NCBI GenBank assembly: GCA_963740355.1
Contig: CAVUDW010000002.1
Span: 1,280,001 to 1,344,000, forward strand
Source: an uncultured Gemmatimonadaceae bacterium
GTDB taxonomy: Bacteria > Gemmatimonadota > Gemmatimonadetes > Gemmatimonadales > Gemmatimonadaceae
Direction of reading: 5' to 3'
Length of the DNA stretch: 64,000 nt
In this document: piece after piece, positions 22,113 through 29,607 of the stretch
Position numbering within the stretch: position 1 is the first letter of the stretch
Layout of the letters: each line of letters opens with the position of its first letter
Notes under the pieces: generated by a model
Told to the model about the DNA's origin: nothing
The model's input: the letters and a program-made list of their open reading frames with translations, nothing else
The model's database searches: none
Translations under genes and position numbers: made by a program

Positions 22113-22149
22113 CCACGACCCTCACCCGAAACCTGGGTGAGGGTCGTGG
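22113..22149. terminator. Perfect 15-bp inverted repeat after the TBDR (terminator or stabilising hairpin)
   Basis: CCACGACCCTCACCC-GAAACCT-GGGTGAGGGTCGTGG; no clear U tract. Confidence 0.6.
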
Positions 22150-22271
22150 CGTATCGGGGCCAGCTCGTGTTGCACCACGTTGCCCGCCTCGAGTACGGAC
22201 TTTTGATTGCGGGCAACGCGCGGCCTGAACGCCAGCGCCGCGTCTGTCAGGCTCCCCATTCCGCCAGGTCG

Positions 22272-25200
22272 ATGCGCCGCCTCCACTCGCTGCTGCTTCT
22301 CACCGCGCTACTGCCGGCCGTCGCCGGTGCGCAGGAAGCCCGTCTGCTCCGCGATCCAACGATCAGCGCCACCGACATCGCGTTCACCTATGGTGCCGAT
22401 CTCTGGATCGTCGCACGCACGGGCGGTACCGCGCGTCGTCTCACCTCGACGCCCGCAGTCGAAAGTGATCCGCACTTCTCGACCGACGGCAAGTCGATCG
22501 CGTTCACGTCGAACCGGTCAGGTTCCGCGCAGGTCTATGTGATGAGCACCGCCGGTGGGGATGCCACCCGACTCACATGGCACCCTGCGGAGTCGTACGC
22601 GCGCGGCTGGTCACCCGATGGAGCGCGTGTGCTCTACGCATCGGAACGCGGCGTTGGCCCAGCCCGATACAGTCGTCTCTGGACGGTGCGTGCGAATGGT
22701 GGCCCGTCCACGATGCTTCCAGCGCCGTGGGGACAGGATGGATCCTATGACCCCACGGGAACGAAGCTGATCGTCGATCGCGTCGATCGCTGGGACATCG
22801 AATGGCGGGGCTATCGCGGTGGCCAGAACACGGCGCTCACGATTCTCGACCTCAATGACCTGTCCGAGACGCGACTGCCGAACGAGCGCACGCAGGACAC
22901 GCGGCCGGTCTGGCTCGGCGGCTCGATCTACTTCCTTTCCGATCGTGATTGGGCGGCGAACGTCTGGTCGTACAACGTGGCGACGAAGGCACTCACGCAG
23001 GTCACTCACTTCAAGGATGCCGACGTCAAGCGGCTGTCCGGTGGCGCCGGGATGCTGGTGCTCGAGCAGGACGGATACCTGCACACGCTCGATCCTGCGA
23101 CCGGCCGGACGACCAAACTCTCGATCACCGTGCCCGGCGATTTTCAGTGGGCTGATGCACGGTGGGAAGATGTCTCGAAGCAGATCGGTGCTGCGTCGCT
23201 CGGGCCGAGTGGTGCACGCGCCGTGTTCGAGGCGCGTGGCGAGATCTTCACGGTGCCTGTCGAGAATGGAGACGCACGCAACCTCACCGCCTCCAGCGGC
23301 GCCGCCGATCGGGCACCCGTCTGGGCGCCTGATGGCAAGCAGGTGGCATGGTTCTCCGACGCGGGCGAAGGGTATCGCCTGTTGATCGGTGCCGCCGATG
23401 GCCGCGGTACGCCACGCGCCCTGTCGATTGGCGAATCGAAGATGGCGTGGGAGCCGACCTGGTCACCCGATGGATCACGCATCGCGTTTTTCGACGATGA
23501 CGTGCGGTTGCGCGTGATCGAAGTGGCGAGCGGGAAGATCATCACCGCAGATGTCGGCGGCAGCAACATCGATCGCGGGAACTCCGGGTTGGTCTGGTCG
23601 GGCGACTCCAAGTGGCTCGCGTACGGCAAGACGTTCGCGAACAACTTCCATCGCATCGTGGCATGGTCGGTCGCGACCGGGAAGGCGACGGCGCTCACCG
23701 ATGGCATGGCAGATGCCATTCGCCCGGCCTTTGACCGCGACGGGCGGCATCTGTATTTCCTCGCCAGCACCGATCTCGCGCTCGCGTCAGGCTGGGCGAA
23801 CACCAGTTCGATCGGTGCCGATCCGAACTACGGCGTCTATGTCGCCGTCCTGCGTGCCGACGATCCGAGTCCGTTCATCCCGAAGAGCGACGAGGAAGCG
23901 GCACCGACGCCGGCGAAGCCCGATACCTCGGCAGCGGCGCGCGAAGTCCGAATTGATTTCACGAACTTCGACCGCCGCATCGTCGCGCTGCCGTTGCCGG
24001 TCAAGCACTATCGCGAACTCGTTGCGGGCCCCAAGGGCTCGGTGTTCATCGGCGCTCGCACGGAGGATGGCCCTGGCCTGGCGTTCAGCAAGTTCACGCT
24101 TTCCGAGAAGAAGGCCGATGCCTTCGTGCGCGGCGTGCGCGATCTCTCCGTCTCGGCGGATGGCAAGAAATTGCTCTATCTCTCCGGCGAGACATGGGCC
24201 GTGGTCGGCACGGATGCCCCTCCAGCCCCAGGCAAGGGCGTGCTCAACCTGTCGTTGCGCACGCATCTCGACCGCCGCGCCGAATGGCGCCAGATCTTCG
24301 ACGAGACGTGGCGCTACGAGCGCGACTTCTTCTACGACCCCGGCATGCACGGCAACGACTGGAACGCCGTGCGTGCGCGGTATCGTCCGTTGGTGGAGCA
24401 TGTGCGCCATCGCGATGACCTGAACTACATCCTCGACCAGGTGAACGGTGAGTTGTCGGTCGGCCACTCGTTCGTGTTCGGCGGTGACATGCCGGCGGTG
24501 GATACCAGCCGTGTCGGGTTGCTCGGTGCAGATCTCGCGGCAGAGAATGGGCGTTGGCGGATCACGCGCATCCTGACCTACGAAAGCTGGAACCCTGGCC
24601 TCAAGGCTCCGCTGGATCGCGCCGGACTGTCGGTGCGCGCGGGTGACTATCTGCTCGCGGTGAACGGCCATGAACTGACGGCCAACGATGATCCATATCG
24701 CTGGCTCGACGGCACGGCCGACAAGCAGACCACCATCCAGGTCAATGCGCGCCCGGTGATGGACGGCGCGCGCACCGAAGTCGTGACGCCGGTCGACAAC
24801 GAGAATGAGTTGCGCACGCGTGCCTGGGTCGAGGACAATCGCCGCCGTGTCGATGAGCTCTCGGGTGGCAAGCTTGCCTACGTGTGGGTGCCGAACACCG
24901 GCGGTGGCGGATATCGCTCGTTCAATCGGTATCTCTTCGCCCAGCAGGACAAGGCGGGCGCGGTGATCGATGAACGCTTCAATGGTGGCGGAAATCTCGA
25001 CGACTACATGGTGGACTACATGACGCGTACGCTGCGCGCGGCCGTCACCAACGAAGTCCCCGGTGGTGCACACTTCGCGTTGCCGCAGGGCGTGCTTGGC
25101 CCGAAGGTGCTGCTGATCAACGAGCTGGCCGGATCGGGTGGCGACTACTTCCCGTGGGCGTTCCGCCAGCAAAAGGTCGGACCGCTGATCGGCGCACGCA

Positions 25201-25484
25201 CGTGGGGCGGCCTGGTGAAGTCGTCGGTGCACTATGCGCTGGTCGATGGTGGTGCAGTCACCGCGCCGGACAACGCCGTCTTCGATCCGATCAACAACAA
25301 GTGGATTGCGGAGAACGAAGGGGTGCCGCCGGATATCGAGGTCCTGCTCGATGCGAAGTCGGTGGCCGCCGGGCGCGATCCGCAGCTCGAACGTGCGGTG
25401 CAGGAAGCGTTGCGACTGGTGAACGCTGCGGCCCGCAAGCCGCTCACGCCACCGCCATTCTCGCGGCCGTCGAAGCGGCCCTGA
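22272..25484 (+). CDS. Tricorn-like S41 protease (secreted)
   Basis: Signal peptide, PD40 propeller repeats, YRGG, ELSVGHS, PDZ region, IDERFNGGG, catalytic GSGGD, RTWGG, ENEGVPPDIEV, DPQLE. Confidence 0.95.
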   Translation: MRRLHSLLLLTALLPAVAGAQEARLLRDPTISATDIAFTYGADLWIVARTGGTARRLTSTPAVESDPHFSTDGKSIAFTSNRSGSAQVYVMSTAGGDATRLTWHPAESYARGWSPDGARVLYASERGVGPARYSRLWTVRANGGPSTMLPAPWGQDGSYDPTGTKLIVDRVDRWDIEWRGYRGGQNTALTILDLNDLSETRLPNERTQDTRPVWLGGSIYFLSDRDWAANVWSYNVATKALTQVTHFKDADVKRLSGGAGMLVLEQDGYLHTLDPATGRTTKLSITVPGDFQWADARWEDVSKQIGAASLGPSGARAVFEARGEIFTVPVENGDARNLTASSGAADRAPVWAPDGKQVAWFSDAGEGYRLLIGAADGRGTPRALSIGESKMAWEPTWSPDGSRIAFFDDDVRLRVIEVASGKIITADVGGSNIDRGNSGLVWSGDSKWLAYGKTFANNFHRIVAWSVATGKATALTDGMADAIRPAFDRDGRHLYFLASTDLALASGWANTSSIGADPNYGVYVAVLRADDPSPFIPKSDEEAAPTPAKPDTSAAAREVRIDFTNFDRRIVALPLPVKHYRELVAGPKGSVFIGARTEDGPGLAFSKFTLSEKKADAFVRGVRDLSVSADGKKLLYLSGETWAVVGTDAPPAPGKGVLNLSLRTHLDRRAEWRQIFDETWRYERDFFYDPGMHGNDWNAVRARYRPLVEHVRHRDDLNYILDQVNGELSVGHSFVFGGDMPAVDTSRVGLLGADLAAENGRWRITRILTYESWNPGLKAPLDRAGLSVRAGDYLLAVNGHELTANDDPYRWLDGTADKQTTIQVNARPVMDGARTEVVTPVDNENELRTRAWVEDNRRRVDELSGGKLAYVWVPNTGGGGYRSFNRYLFAQQDKAGAVIDERFNGGGNLDDYMVDYMTRTLRAAVTNEVPGGAHFALPQGVLGPKVLLINELAGSGGDYFPWAFRQQKVGPLIGARTWGGLVKSSVHYALVDGGAVTAPDNAVFDPINNKWIAENEGVPPDIEVLLDAKSVAAGRDPQLERAVQEALRLVNAAARKPLTPPPFSRPSKRP

Positions 25485-25708
25485 TCAGAACCGCGGGGCT
25501 GGTCGCGTGACCTGGGGGATCAGAGTCGAGTGACCGGTCAGTACCGGAACACACCGCCCGCCGACGGAGGCCCGAATGCCGTCGGTGGCGCGGTCGCTGA
25601 CCACCGACGGGCCATCCGCCGTTCGGCGGACTTCGTTGCGGAGGGACGGCGCGTTATCGTGCGGGTTGATGCTGCAGGGGCCGGCGACTTGCTCGAGCAT
25701 GCCACCTG

Positions 25709-26761
25709 ATGCCCCCCAATCTCCCGCTTGAGACCATCGTGACCGCAGCCGCAGATACCGAAGAGTCCCCACATGTCGACCAGGACGATCTTGGTTTCGG
25801 CCGGATCGTTGGACAGCAGGTTCGTGGACGCTTCCTGAACCGTGATGGATCGCCCAACAGCCGGAAGTTCGGGCTCGGACCGCAGCGACTCGAGCGACTC
25901 TATCTCGGCGCCCTCAATACGACCTGGCTGACCTTCCTCGGCTGGTCGCTGAGCGCGATCATGTTGCTCAACGGGTGCTTCACACTCGCCTACATCGCCC
26001 TTGGCACGAAGGCGATCGCGGGTCAGGAACTGGCGGGCATTGCGGATCCGTTCCTCTCCGCCTTCAGCTTCAGCCTGGCAGTCTTCACCACCTCGGATAC
26101 CACGCCGATGTACGCCGTGGGTGCCACGGCGCATTGGTTGGTGATCTTCGAGTCGCTCCTCGGCCCGTTGTGTGTGATCGCAGTCGCTGGCCTGCTGATC
26201 GCACGGTTGATTCGTCCCCGCATGCGGCTTCGCTTCAGCGAGTCTGCGGTGGTGGCACCGTACGAAGACGGCCGCGGCCTCATGTTCCGCATCGTCAACA
26301 CGCAGCCAAGCGAGTTGAGTGATGTGCATGTGCGCGCCAATCTCGCCATGTTCGAGACGCACAACGGCGTGCGCTCGCGTGAGTTCTATCAGCTCGACCT
26401 CGAACTCGACCAGGTCCAGTTCTTCTCGCTACACTGGACGATCGTACACCCGATCACCGACAGCAGCCCACTCCGCGGATTTACGCAGGCCATGTGGCGC
26501 GAGGCTGAGGCCGAACTGTTCATCGCCATCAACGCGCACGAGGAGACGTTCTCGACCCGTGTCACGGCTCGCACGTCGTACATCGGCGACGAGATTCGCT
26601 GGGATGCAAAGTTCGCGAGTGTCTTCGTCAGCTCGCCTGACGCGGTGATCACCATCGACGTCGAGCGCCTTGATCGCCTCGAAACGCTGCCCGACGGAAC
26701 CACCAGCCAGCCGGCTGCAGCAGAGCTCAATGCAACGGCTCCACCAGCCGGGCGTCAGTAG
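25709..26761 (+). CDS. KirBac-like inward-rectifier channel homolog with a non-canonical filter
   Basis: DLGFG, RFLNRDGS.N, two TM helices, RLRFSESAVV, GLMFRIVN, WTIVHPITDSSPL, TSY..DEI.W...F. The filter position reads TSDTT. Confidence 0.88.
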   Translation: MPPNLPLETIVTAAADTEESPHVDQDDLGFGRIVGQQVRGRFLNRDGSPNSRKFGLGPQRLERLYLGALNTTWLTFLGWSLSAIMLLNGCFTLAYIALGTKAIAGQELAGIADPFLSAFSFSLAVFTTSDTTPMYAVGATAHWLVIFESLLGPLCVIAVAGLLIARLIRPRMRLRFSESAVVAPYEDGRGLMFRIVNTQPSELSDVHVRANLAMFETHNGVRSREFYQLDLELDQVQFFSLHWTIVHPITDSSPLRGFTQAMWREAEAELFIAINAHEETFSTRVTARTSYIGDEIRWDAKFASVFVSSPDAVITIDVERLDRLETLPDGTTSQPAAAELNATAPPAGRQ

Positions 26762-26779
26762 GCGATCAGAGGCATCGGG

Positions 26780-28351
26780 TCAGCGCACATCTCCGGCGCC
26801 GACCCGCACCGCTTCGTGATCCAGTTCTTCCTCCAGCTGCCGCAGGGTCTCATCGGAAATTGCGCCTTCGTTACGGAGGCGCACCAGCATCCGCCGCTCG
26901 GCCCGTAACACGCCGGTCCGGAGCTGTCGGTGCGTGAGATCGTGCGAATTGCGCTCGTGGTGCTGCATCCGATCGCGAAGCTCGCGTCGGATCCGGTCCA
27001 CCTCGGTCTGGTCGGCCCATGGTTCGCGCGCCAGGTCCTCGAGAGCCTCGGCGCCGCGCCGCATCGCCTCGCGGCGTGCATGACGCTCTTCCTCGTGATG
27101 TGTGCTGTCCGGCGCAAAGTCGAAGCGCTTGATGATCGGCGTCAACGTCAGCCCCTGGACCACCAGCGTGATCATGATCACACACATCGTGATCAGGATG
27201 ATCTCGGCGCGGTAGGGAAATGGTGCACCATTCGACAGCACCAGCGGCAGCGCGAGCGCTGACGCGAGCGAGACAATACCGCGCATGCCCGTCCACGCGA
27301 CCAACGCCACCGCCTTCGGGTTCGGCTCCGGCTCGCGACGGCGGATGTCGGCACTGAGCCAGCGTGGCAGCCAAGTCGCCACCGGCACCCACACCATTCG
27401 CAGGACAATGGCGACGATGCTGATCGCCACGCCAGCCATGAGCACGGCGCCGAGTGTGCCTGGGGGGACTTCCTTCATGAGGGGGCCGAACTGCAAGCCC
27501 AGGATCAGGAAGATGAGCGCGTTGATCACGAACACGATCAGGTCCCACACCGAGCGTGATTGCAGCCGAGACATCGGTGAGATGACCGTCGAGAAGTGCT
27601 GGCGCAGGTACACACCGCCGGCCACACACGCCAGCACCGCCGATACGTGAATCGACTCCGCCGCGACCCAGGCGAGGTACGGCGCGGCGATCGTCATCAG
27701 CGTTTCAGCCAGTGAATCCTTCGTCCAGCGCGCAGCGCGCACGACGCACCAACTGACCAGCAGCCCGATCAACGCGCCGACGGCGGCGTCGATGAAGAAC
27801 CGAACCACCGCTTCGCCGAGACTGAAGACGCCGGTGACAGCCGCCGCGACCGCCGTGCGAAAGAGCACCAGCGCCGCGGCATCGTTCACCAGGCTTTCCC
27901 CTTCGAGAATCACCACCACGCGGCGCGGCACAGGCAGCCGCGATACCACGGCCGCCGCCGCCACGGCATCGGGTGGCGAAACGATCGCACCGATCGCCAC
28001 CGCGACCGCCCACGGGAGACCGGGCAGCAGACCGCGTGCGGCAATCGCGACCACCGCGGTGGTGACGAACACGAGGCCAACGGCCAACAGGCTGATGGGG
28101 CGAATGGCCTGCTTGAACTCGCGCACCGACGTGAAGAACGCGGCTGCCCAGAGGATGGGTGGCAGGAACACGAAGAAGACGAGGTCCGGTTCCAGCTCCG
28201 GGACACGAACCCCGGGAATGAAACCAAGTGCCAGACCTGCCAGCACCTGCAGGATCGGTGACGGCACGGGCAGGCGACGGGCCAGTGCCGTGATCGCGAC
28301 GACGAGCGCCGCGACTGCGATGGCAACGAGGATTGGCTGGAATGGCGACAT
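26780..28351 (-). CDS. Na+/H+ antiporter, CPA1 family
   Basis: FLPPILW, GAIVSPPDAVA, LEGESLVNDA, WTGMRGIVSLA, C-terminal EELD tail. Start moved to ATG 28351. Confidence 0.93.
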   Translation of the reverse strand: MSPFQPILVAIAVAALVVAITALARRLPVPSPILQVLAGLALGFIPGVRVPELEPDLVFFVFLPPILWAAAFFTSVREFKQAIRPISLLAVGLVFVTTAVVAIAARGLLPGLPWAVAVAIGAIVSPPDAVAAAAVVSRLPVPRRVVVILEGESLVNDAAALVLFRTAVAAAVTGVFSLGEAVVRFFIDAAVGALIGLLVSWCVVRAARWTKDSLAETLMTIAAPYLAWVAAESIHVSAVLACVAGGVYLRQHFSTVISPMSRLQSRSVWDLIVFVINALIFLILGLQFGPLMKEVPPGTLGAVLMAGVAISIVAIVLRMVWVPVATWLPRWLSADIRRREPEPNPKAVALVAWTGMRGIVSLASALALPLVLSNGAPFPYRAEIILITMCVIMITLVVQGLTLTPIIKRFDFAPDSTHHEEERHARREAMRRGAEALEDLAREPWADQTEVDRIRRELRDRMQHHERNSHDLTHRQLRTGVLRAERRMLVRLRNEGAISDETLRQLEEELDHEAVRVGAGDVR

Positions 28352-28361
28352 GTCTGGACGG

Positions 28362-29411
28362 TCAGGCGCTGACTGGCGTACCGAGTGCTGCTCGAACTCG
28401 TGGTGCGACGGCGGTGCCGAGCAGCTCGATCGCGCGCAACATCTTCTCGTGCGGCAAGGTGGACACACCCATCTGGAAGGTGAAGCGCACGATGCCGCCG
28501 AGATCTTCATTGATCCGCAGCAACTTGGTGGCGACCGTCTCCGGATCACCGATCACCAGTGCGCCAGTGGGGCCGCGCTGCGCGTCGAACTGCGCCCGCG
28601 TGGTCGGCGGCCAGCCGCGCTCCTTCCCGATCTCGGTGAAGGTGTGCGCATAGCCAGGATAGAACTCGTTTGCGGCACCGTCGGTGGTGTCGGCCAGGAA
28701 TCCGATCGAGTGCACACCGACCTTGAGCGCCTCTGCCGCGTGACCCGCACGGCGGCCAGCGTCACGATAGAGATCGACCAGTGGCCGGAACCGTCGATGT
28801 TCACCGCCGATGATCGCCACCATCAAGGGAAGTCCGAGTGTGCCGGCGCGCACGAACGATGCTGGCGTTCCTCCGACTCCGACCCAGATTGGCAATGGCG
28901 TCTGGAGCGGCCGTGGATAAATCGCCTGGCCCGTCAACGGCGCGCGATGCTGGCCAGACCAGTGTACTCGCGTATTCTCGCGGATGGCGAGGAGGAGCTG
29001 CAGCTTTTCAGCGAAGAGCGAGTCGTAGTCCTCCAGCTGGAGGCCAAACAGCGGATATGACTCGATGAAGCTGCCGCGGCCAGCCACGATCTCGGCGCGA
29101 CCATTCGAGATCAGGTCCAGCGTCGCGAACTCCTGAAAGACGCGCACCGGATCGGCGGCGCTCAACACCGTCACGGCACTCGTGAGACGAATCCGCTCGG
29201 TGATCGCCGCCGCCGCCGCGAGGATGACCGCTGGTGCCGAGTCGAGGAACTCCGGACGGTGATGTTCGCCGATCCCGAAGACATCCAGACCGACACGATC
29301 CGCCAGCGCGATTTCCTGCAACAGCGTCTGCATCCGCTCAACTGGCGTCAGTGCCACGCCGGTGACCGGGTCAGGAATGGCCGCGGCAAAGCTATCGATA
29401 CCGATCTGCAC
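28362..29411 (-). CDS. LLM class flavin-dependent oxidoreductase (luciferase-like)
   Basis: GLDVFGIGEHH, TSAVTVLS.DPVRV, LDLISNGRAE, GRGSF. GTG start at 29411 with a GAGGAG Shine-Dalgarno. Confidence 0.93.
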   Translation of the reverse strand: MQIGIDSFAAAIPDPVTGVALTPVERMQTLLQEIALADRVGLDVFGIGEHHRPEFLDSAPAVILAAAAAITERIRLTSAVTVLSAADPVRVFQEFATLDLISNGRAEIVAGRGSFIESYPLFGLQLEDYDSLFAEKLQLLLAIRENTRVHWSGQHRAPLTGQAIYPRPLQTPLPIWVGVGGTPASFVRAGTLGLPLMVAIIGGEHRRFRPLVDLYRDAGRRAGHAAEALKVGVHSIGFLADTTDGAANEFYPGYAHTFTEIGKERGWPPTTRAQFDAQRGPTGALVIGDPETVATKLLRINEDLGGIVRFTFQMGVSTLPHEKMLRAIELLGTAVAPRVRAALGTPVSA

Positions 29412-29607
29412 AGCAGGAACTCCTCGCGCCGGAAGTGGCCGGCGTGCCATTGGTTCGGAATCACCGCCCGGCGAGACGCCGGCGATACATGATCGAGCGG
29501 GCACGCGGCGCCAGCCGACCGCGTGCCTGTGATCGATTCAATCATATCGACGCTCGCCCGTCAGCAGCCACTTCCTTGCGACGCGGCGGCTGCGCATCAT
29601 TGCCCGA

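Follow-up and report, generated by a model that had tools for sequence, protein, structure and literature searches.

The DNA analysed here (the window) is a 64,000-nucleotide stretch from an uncultured Gemmatimonadaceae bacterium, positions 1,280,001 to 1,344,000 of contig CAVUDW010000002.1 in assembly GCA_963740355.1. The host is a soil/sediment bacterium. The window contains a gene for a homologue of the bacterial inward-rectifier potassium (KirBac) channels, in which the K+ selectivity filter is replaced by the glycine-free sequence TSDTT and which we assign to the NirBac2 type of non-canonical KirBac homologues. The gene and its parts are as follows, the helices being those of an AlphaFold2 (AF2) model and TM1 and TM2 denoting the two transmembrane (TM) helices:

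25709..26761 (including the stop codon), + strand: NirBac2-type Kir-like channel gene, 350 aa, with zero internal stops
25886..25918, + strand: slide helix, residues 60-70; an AF2 helix that matches the position of the KirBac slide helix in the PDB alignment
25925..26002, + strand: outer helix TM1, residues 73-98; AF2 model
26048..26086, + strand: pore helix, residues 114-126; AF2 model
26090..26104, + strand: filter T128-S129-D130-T131-T132, in register with T-[IV]-G-Y-G
26123..26212, + strand: inner helix TM2, residues 139-168; AF2 model
26228..26704, + strand: cytoplasmic immunoglobulin (Ig)-like Kir domain, residues 174-332; PF17655 and AF2 beta strands

The protein belongs to the Kir/KirBac family (TC 1.A.2) both by sequence and by predicted fold. 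Residues 174-332 match the Pfam model of the cytoplasmic Ig-like domain, IRK_C (PF17655), at 3.9e-22 and 79.2 bits against a cut-off of 22.5, and phmmer comparison with the PDB aligns residues 39-320 to residues 11-289 of KirBac3.1 (E 8e-38) and residues 53-332 to KirBac1.1 (1p7b; 2.5e-28). The transmembrane IRK model of Pfam (PF01007) has no match in the channel protein or elsewhere in the window's genome. The AF2 monomer model, built from a 150-sequence alignment, has a mean predicted local distance difference test score (pLDDT) of 93 and a predicted template-modelling score (pTM) of 0.83. In it the slide helix, TM1, pore helix and TM2 are continuous with a beta-rich domain at residues 174-326, and there are two TM helices only together with the Kir domain, not the six-TM architecture with a voltage sensor. 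A Foldseek search of the PDB is led by KirBac3.1 and KirBac1.1 (E 1.7e-27), its top 20 are all KirBac structures, and the target-normalised template-modelling score reaches 0.87 for KirBac3.1 and 0.90 for 2wll. Prediction of the TM and pore domain as a tetramer (residues 56-174, four copies) gave a median of 0.40 against a mark of 0.42 and is used neither for nor against assembly. A promoter and terminator scan of 25300-27000, which is uninformative for this phylum, detected nothing. A look for evidence of expression turned up no RNA data set, and the DNA data sets had low word shares, 0.21 at best.

The P-loop, in which a K+ channel carries the signature T-x-G-[YF]-G, has TSDTT instead. Residues 119-136 read F-S-F-S-L-A-V-F-T-T-S-D-T-T-P-M-Y-A, and because the alignment to KirBac3.1 has zero gaps across the pore helix, the filter and TM2, T-S-D-T-T falls directly on T-I-G-Y-G. 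A preliminary description of this locus, made from the letters alone, had placed TSDTT at 26090-26104 in gapless register with the canonical KirBac filter, with the TM helices and cytoplasmic domain intact and uninterrupted by frameshift or stop. The phmmer alignment, the open 350-aa reading frame (the motif being its residues 128-132), the IRK_C match and the AF2 helices bear this out at every point.

There are several differences around the filter, as seen by comparing the clade of close relatives of the window protein with a set of 125 canonical sequences. The pore-helix columns 124 and 125, which are Q (0.89) and T (0.92) in canonical KirBacs, are G or A and V in the clade (A124 and V125 in the window protein). 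The Pro that follows the filter is changed to Ala (136), N is changed to H (142) and is joined by a fixed Trp (143), giving H142-W143 in the window protein, L is changed to P beside G152 in TM2 (P153), and F is changed to L (167). D113, at the pore-helix start or turret, is invariant across the clade, as are G152, G161 and T128, and F121, S122, T128, E148, G152, G161, R166 and P170 are kept in common with canonical KirBacs. Among clade members with a glycine-free filter, D130 is present in 86% and S129 in 97%. The filter also has an acidic residue (D130) at position 3 after the pore-helix Thr, the arrangement for which the bacterial sodium channels (BacNaV) and CavAb provide the comparison.

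A scan of species-representative genomes found 37 related loci, 35 of them titled as metagenome-assembled genomes (MAGs) of Gemmatimonadaceae, Gemmatimonadales, Gemmatimonadota or Gemmatimonas; of the other two, one is titled 'uncultured bacterium' and one is a 3.3-kb contig titled 'Tepidiformaceae'. The latter (L017, 3259 bp) carries the channel together with the convergent antiporter gene described below, at 62% and 70% identity to the Gemmatimonadaceae genes, and reflects either mis-binning of the contig or transfer to Chloroflexota. The orthologous reading frames are complete in every locus examined, bar one that runs off its contig, and among the nearest relatives, all independent MAG assemblies, five have TSDTT (L003, L004, L006, L007 and L012) and two have TSDTA (L005 and L013). 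The ratio of non-synonymous to synonymous substitution (dN/dS), calculated by the Nei-Gojobori method over the 21 pairs formed by the window gene and six complete TSDT[T/A] orthologues, is 0.091 for residues 20-335 (dN 0.10, dS 1.10), 0.080 for the turret, pore helix and filter (residues 101-139), 0.065 for TM2 and 0.098 for the cytoplasmic domain, all of them approximate ratios with dS close to saturation. Since the values for the P-loop and TM2 lie below that of the whole, the pore region is constrained at least as strongly as the remainder. Comparison of the orthologous sequences thus excludes a sequencing error as the source of TSDTT, as the preliminary description had argued from the substitutions themselves, and the check on homologues that it proposed finds the filter conserved in close relatives and selection not relaxed. 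By the same comparison the gene is neither an error nor a decaying gene and is under purifying selection. The notion of an assembly or sequencing artefact, or of a recently inactivated pseudogene, has nothing in its favour beyond the oddity of the motif itself; with the motif present in seven independent assemblies and, within the window's subclade, in 20 clustered proteins from the database, complete frames, and a dN/dS of 0.09 at a dS of about 1.1, we regard it as exceedingly improbable.

The channel is not an isolated curiosity. A word-indexed protein search scored 8000 candidates, of which 1099 are relatives at E <= 0.001; the best 120 are 60-86% identical to the window protein and, where named, belong to Gemmatimonadota under the labels 'inward rectifier potassium channel', 'transporter' or 'hypothetical'. 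An exhaustive search of 50%-identity representatives gave 2344 relatives, and the nearest representatives outside a few same-clade clusters (<=43% identity) have, with few exceptions, the canonical T-[IV]-G-[YF]-G. The name 'NirBac' has been given to homologues of KirBac whose P-loop is non-canonical (Zubcevic et al. 2015, Sci Rep 5:15305, PMC4607889). NirBac1.1 and NirBac1.2, from Anaeromyxobacter, are tetrameric, are activated by palmitoyl-oleoyl-phosphatidylglycerol (POPG) and in liposome flux assays conduct Na+, K+ and Rb+ with little selectivity; Ba2+ and spermine give no block, and NirBac1.2 is impermeable to Ca2+ (PMC4607889). NirBac2.1, from Gemmatimonas aurantiaca T-27 (YP_002762692), has a conserved P-loop frame and the filter TTGTD; its expression and purification were unsuccessful and the study of it ended there (PMC4607889).

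The window protein has KirBac homology over its whole length together with a non-canonical P-loop filter, and so shares the defining features of the NirBacs. It lies in a monophyletic Gemmatimonadaceae clade whose filters are mainly T-[T/V]-G-T-G, although its own is TSDTT. Loci titled Gemmatimonas sp. carry TTGTG, and a search seeded with one of them recovered a clade member (P0319) with exactly TTGTD, whose identity to the window protein is 65% across 310 gap-free residues; no protein named G. aurantiaca is among the best 120 matches of the homologue search seeded with the Gemmatimonas sp. orthologue. From motif, taxon and clade we infer that the window's clade is the published NirBac2 type and is orthologous to NirBac2.1. 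On its sequence the channel would be a more extreme variant of this published, uncharacterised type, glycine-free and with Asp at position 3. No later papers on NirBac2-type channels or on glycine-free Kir filters were found in the literature searched, the coverage of which stops short of subscription journals.

The history of the filter was reconstructed from a maximum-likelihood tree (IQ-TREE quick search, LG+G4) calculated with the filter columns removed. It comprises 127 rows, namely eight canonical outgroups and 119 clade proteins (P0001-P0121 limited to 320-420 aa, with P0041 and P0053 dropped). The clade is monophyletic, with a support of 100 in the Shimodaira-Hasegawa-like approximate likelihood ratio test (SH-aLRT), and stands on a long branch. 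There are several striking features of the filters distributed upon it. First, T-[T/V]-G-T-G is the commonest filter and is present in all three main subgroups. Second, a 52-row clade (support 96) has Ser at position 2 and contains TSGTG, TSSTG, TSDTG, TSDTS, TSDAS/A and TSDT[T/A]; the window protein lies in a 20-row subclade of it (support 99) composed of TSDTT and TSDTA with single instances of TSNTT, TSTTT and TSSTT. Third, a separate 9-row clade (support 99), nested in TTGTG rows, has TSDPG, TSDAT, TSDTS, TSDHS and TSAPG. Finally, position 3 among the 119 rows is G in 62, D in 42, S in 11, A in 2, N in 1 and T in 1, and position 5 is G in 70, A in 20, T in 19, S in 9 and E in 1, such that 48 of the 119 keep both filter glycines and 35 lack both; the tree requires at least 5 changes for loss or regain of the first glycine and 16 for the second. 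The rare filters TTGID, TTGSE and TRDTT also occur in the clade (L020:2322-3302, P0115 and P0097), TRDTT adjoining TTGTT elsewhere in the tree.

Taken together, the aligned filters show positions 2-5 as an evolutionary hotspot, whereas the T at position 1 is fixed. As read from the tree, one branch runs from T-S-G-T-G through T-S-D-T-G to T-S-D-T-T, so that the glycine-free filter stands at the last step of a series, and a T-S-D filter arose at least twice; a topology with all 63 T-S rows in a single clade is rejected by the approximately unbiased (AU) test (difference in log likelihood, delta lnL, 125.8; p 0.0096). An AU test in which all 42 rows with Asp at position 3 form one clade gave p 1.5e-51; as the main T-S clade also contains scattered Gly and Ser rows, this test was considered too stringent and put aside. 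Two things are to be added to the preliminary description, namely that the NirBac2 type had already been named and that the filter is the end of a graded series and not a one-off.

Immediately downstream, and convergent with the channel as previously described, is a gene for a CPA1 antiporter. The neighbouring genes are these:

26780..28549 (open reading frame, ORF, as listed), - strand: CPA1 Na+/H+ antiporter, convergent; PF00999 1.2e-55, TIGR00831 360.6 bits against a cut-off of 279.6
22137-25484, + strand: tricorn-protease-like ORF upstream of the channel; PD40 repeats, Tricorn_C1, Tricorn PDZ and Peptidase_S41
28362-29504, - strand: luciferase-like monooxygenase beyond the CPA1 gene; PF00296, 7e-48

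The stop codons of the channel and CPA1 genes are 18 bp apart, and the true start of the latter is probably at a Met near 28351, because the family match begins near residue 76. A locus was counted as informative when it had at least 1.5 kb downstream or a visible neighbour, as did 34 of the 37 loci (three being uninformative), and in 30 of these 34 a CPA1 gene is convergent with and immediately downstream of the channel, separated from it by roughly 36-594 bp; channels as little as 55% identical still have this neighbour. Upstream, synteny of the tricorn-type protease extends to just one related locus, and the luciferase-like monooxygenase is kept beside CPA1 in 10 loci, all of them close relatives. 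The junction of channel and antiporter thus outlasts the remaining neighbourhood, and this conserved pairing of genes is suggestive of a functional link between the two.

An IRK_C gene is present in 78 of 151 sampled genomes of the same family, or 65 of 109 when only high-quality genomes are counted; the tally of 151 takes in two unpublished genomes, G134 and G007, which contribute to this count alone. The genomes with multiple IRK_C matches, seven in number, were inspected. Five of them (G018, G019, G031, G094 and G104) each have one canonical TIGYG copy (36-40% identity to the window protein) and one NirBac2-type copy (56-65%), and another, G079, has two canonical copies. CPA1 adjoins the NirBac2-type copy in four of the five two-type genomes – the contig of the fifth ends about 150 bp past the gene – and is within 3 kb of none of the four informative canonical copies, three canonical loci being uninformative. 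With the two kinds of copy coexisting and CPA1 beside the NirBac2-type only, the latter is therefore a separate paralogous lineage with its own conserved partner. The seventh genome (G137) has three IRK_C matches (L054, L055 and L056) that align only to window residues 134-332, at about 40% identity; similarity to TM1 or the P-loop was not detected in any of the three, and they are possibly proteins that have the Kir domain but a different pore module, or none.

The preliminary description had suggested that a canonical KirBac paralogue be sought in the window's own genome (5.45 Mb, 94.5% complete). It has none, IRK_C matching the channel gene only and PF01007 nothing, though relatives do carry one. 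Kup and KdpA are encoded in this genome, so that K+ uptake is covered elsewhere; TrkH was not found in it. There is also a 180-aa two-TM ORF matching Ion_trans_2 (Pfam 5e-05; L002:1156-1698, + strand, contig C2 near 1828084-1828626), the pore loop of which is F-F-G-Y-S-D and not T-x-G-Y-G-D, and because this is the sole other pore-loop match the genome appears to be without a fully canonical K+-signature channel.

The filter glycines are required for the carbonyl-lined S1-S3 sites of K+ channels, and because L-residues replace both of them here, a canonical four-site K+ filter would be precluded. We consider that the NirBac2-like branch is probably no longer K+-selective, and favour, with a little better than even confidence, the reading that the gene encodes a tetrameric cation channel that would not select K+ over Na+, with an Asp ring at filter position 3 and possibly feeding the antiporter. 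The subunit would assemble as a homotetramer, as in the characterised Kir, KirBac and NirBac1 channels, and the pore would consist of a short filter in which T128 and S129 supply inner carbonyl and hydroxyl sites and four D130 side chains form a pore-facing carboxylate ring. An acidic residue is at position 3 in BacNaV channels (TLESWxx, as in TLESWSM) and in CavAb (TLDDWSD) when these are aligned to KcsA TVGYG (PMC8677417). Such a channel would be permeable to both Na+ and K+; divalent cations may also bind in it or pass through. Together, channel and CPA1 could constitute one cation circuit for pH or salt homeostasis, in which Na+ (or K+) enters and is exchanged for H+; in alkaliphilic Bacillus, pH homeostasis by cation/proton antiporters draws on Na+ that enters through a channel (PMC4225499). 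A bolder extension is that T-S-D carboxylate-ring filters evolved at least twice in Gemmatimonadaceae and yielded the first natural Na+/Ca2+-preferring members of the inward-rectifier superfamily, acting as a re-entry valve that supplies CPA1 in a two-gene pH/salt module; this is speculative, and we think it rather unlikely to be correct in full.

A number of observations weigh against a non-selective channel with an Asp ring that feeds CPA1. The predicted lack of selectivity is an argument from analogy, and the Trypanosoma brucei channel TbIRK, a Kir homologue without the signature (GGYVG), has a K+/Na+ selectivity above 7 (PMC5429665). The monomer model is silent on whether D130 faces the pore, and the canonical sequences in the alignment may account for its high confidence in the filter. 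The close clade varies at positions 4 and 5 (T/A) and includes TSNTT, TSTTT and TSSTT, so that Asp is not absolutely required, and the T-S group submitted to the AU test was chosen only once the tree was known. With respect to the antiporter, the CPA1 neighbour is missing in 4 of the 34 informative loci (L011, L020, L027 and L033), the convergent orientation of the two genes means that they are not co-transcribed, and the conservation is in part a matter of common descent, the loci all belonging to a single bacterial family.

The selectivity of TbIRK is also the precedent for supposing that the channel prefers K+ through a different filter geometry and serves in K+ uptake or release like canonical KirBacs. 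T128 and the entire pore-helix frame are retained, and the K+ channel role would otherwise be vacant in this genome, which has no canonical KirBac and whose other pore-loop match has the atypical F-G-Y-S-D. However, the glycines needed for sites S1-S3 have both become L-residues, one of them charged, Kup and Kdp are present, and the occurrence of a canonical TIGYG paralogue beside a NirBac2-type copy in five genomes argues for different jobs; the characterised NirBacs, moreover, are non-selective (PMC4607889). A K+-preferring channel is thus improbable in our judgement. At the other extreme, the pore could be permanently collapsed and the Kir scaffold retained as a sensor or regulator, for example of the adjoining CPA1. 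Such a non-conducting pseudo-channel would accord with the loss of the filter glycines, the altered Q/T network of the pore helix behind the filter and the conserved CPA1 neighbour, as well as with the cytoplasmic domain being the best-conserved part recognisable by Pfam while the TM model PF01007 no longer matches. It is difficult to reconcile with the dN/dS of the P-loop (0.080) and TM2 (0.065) relative to that of the cytoplasmic domain (0.098) and with the invariance of G152, G161 and T128 in the clade, and the recurrence of T-S-D in separate lineages speaks for selection acting on the chemistry of the pore and not for neglect; NirBac1 channels conduct despite still more divergent P-loops (PMC4607889). 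We accordingly give little credence to a collapsed pore.

A third alternative is a sharper form of the favoured reading, in which the Asp ring is a high-affinity divalent site and the protein is a divalent-cation (Ca2+/Mg2+) or proton-gated pathway. In its favour are D130 at position 3 and the invariant D113 at the turret and pore-helix start, and extra acidic residues in a BacNaV filter do confer Ca2+ selectivity, as in CavAb TLDDWSD (PMC8677417). The filter proper, however, has a single acidic residue per subunit, like the Na+-selective TLESW, the CPA1 partner points to monovalent cations, and NirBac1.2 is impermeable to Ca2+ (PMC4607889), so that a dedicated divalent or proton-gated pathway is doubtful at best. 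Of the two roles offered in the preliminary description, the non-selective or different-ion channel is therefore the better supported, by analogy with NirBac1, and the non-conducting regulatory subunit is disfavoured by the constraint on the P-loop and TM2.

The selectivity of K+ channels is taught as dependent on the two filter glycines. In this clade one and then both are removed on an otherwise unchanged Kir scaffold, via the living intermediates TTGTG, TSGTG, TSDTG and TSDTT and under strong constraint, which would offer a natural mutational series from a K+ filter to another cation filter on a scaffold with many solved structures. The NirBac2 branch gains scale: it has more than 1000 proteins in the database, and a Kir-type gene of either kind is present in about half of the Gemmatimonadaceae genomes sampled. 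Its relation to canonical KirBacs is that of a paralogue, and CPA1 emerges as its candidate physiological partner. What is new here is the size and history of the clade, the evidence of selection, the repeated occurrence of T-S-D, the coexistence with canonical paralogues and the pairing with CPA1.

Comparison with known systems places the window protein as follows. With KirBac3.1 and KirBac1.1 (1xl4, 1p7b) it shares the same fold over about 290 residues, the TM2 glycines, R166/P170 and IRK_C, but it is only 30-31% identical to them, and it has other residues in place of T-[IV]-G-Y-G, of the Q/T pair of the pore helix and of the Pro after the filter. NavAb (TLESWSM) and CavAb (TLDDWSD) likewise begin their filter with a Thr where the pore helix ends and carry an acidic residue at position 3, which in their tetramers gives a ring of four carboxylates (PMC8677417), but they are six-TM, voltage-gated channels with a second pore helix and no Kir domain, and the likeness would be one of filter chemistry only. 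TbIRK is similarly a Kir homologue without TxGYG, but is eukaryotic and organellar, keeps three glycines (GGYVG) and has moderate K+ selectivity (PMC5429665). NirBac2.1 is, like the window protein, a Gemmatimonadota KirBac homologue with a conserved P-loop frame and a non-canonical filter, the two filters beginning T-T and T-S; it keeps the first glycine and has Asp at position 5 (TTGTD), whereas the window protein is glycine-free with Asp at position 3. NirBac1.1 and NirBac1.2, finally, combine Kir architecture with a non-K+ filter and provide the functional model for the window gene, but they come from a different phylum (Anaeromyxobacter) and their whole P-loop is unrelated to those of K+ channels (PMC4607889); the window protein keeps the P-loop frame F-S-F-S...F-T-T, with changes confined to the filter and the residues that support it.

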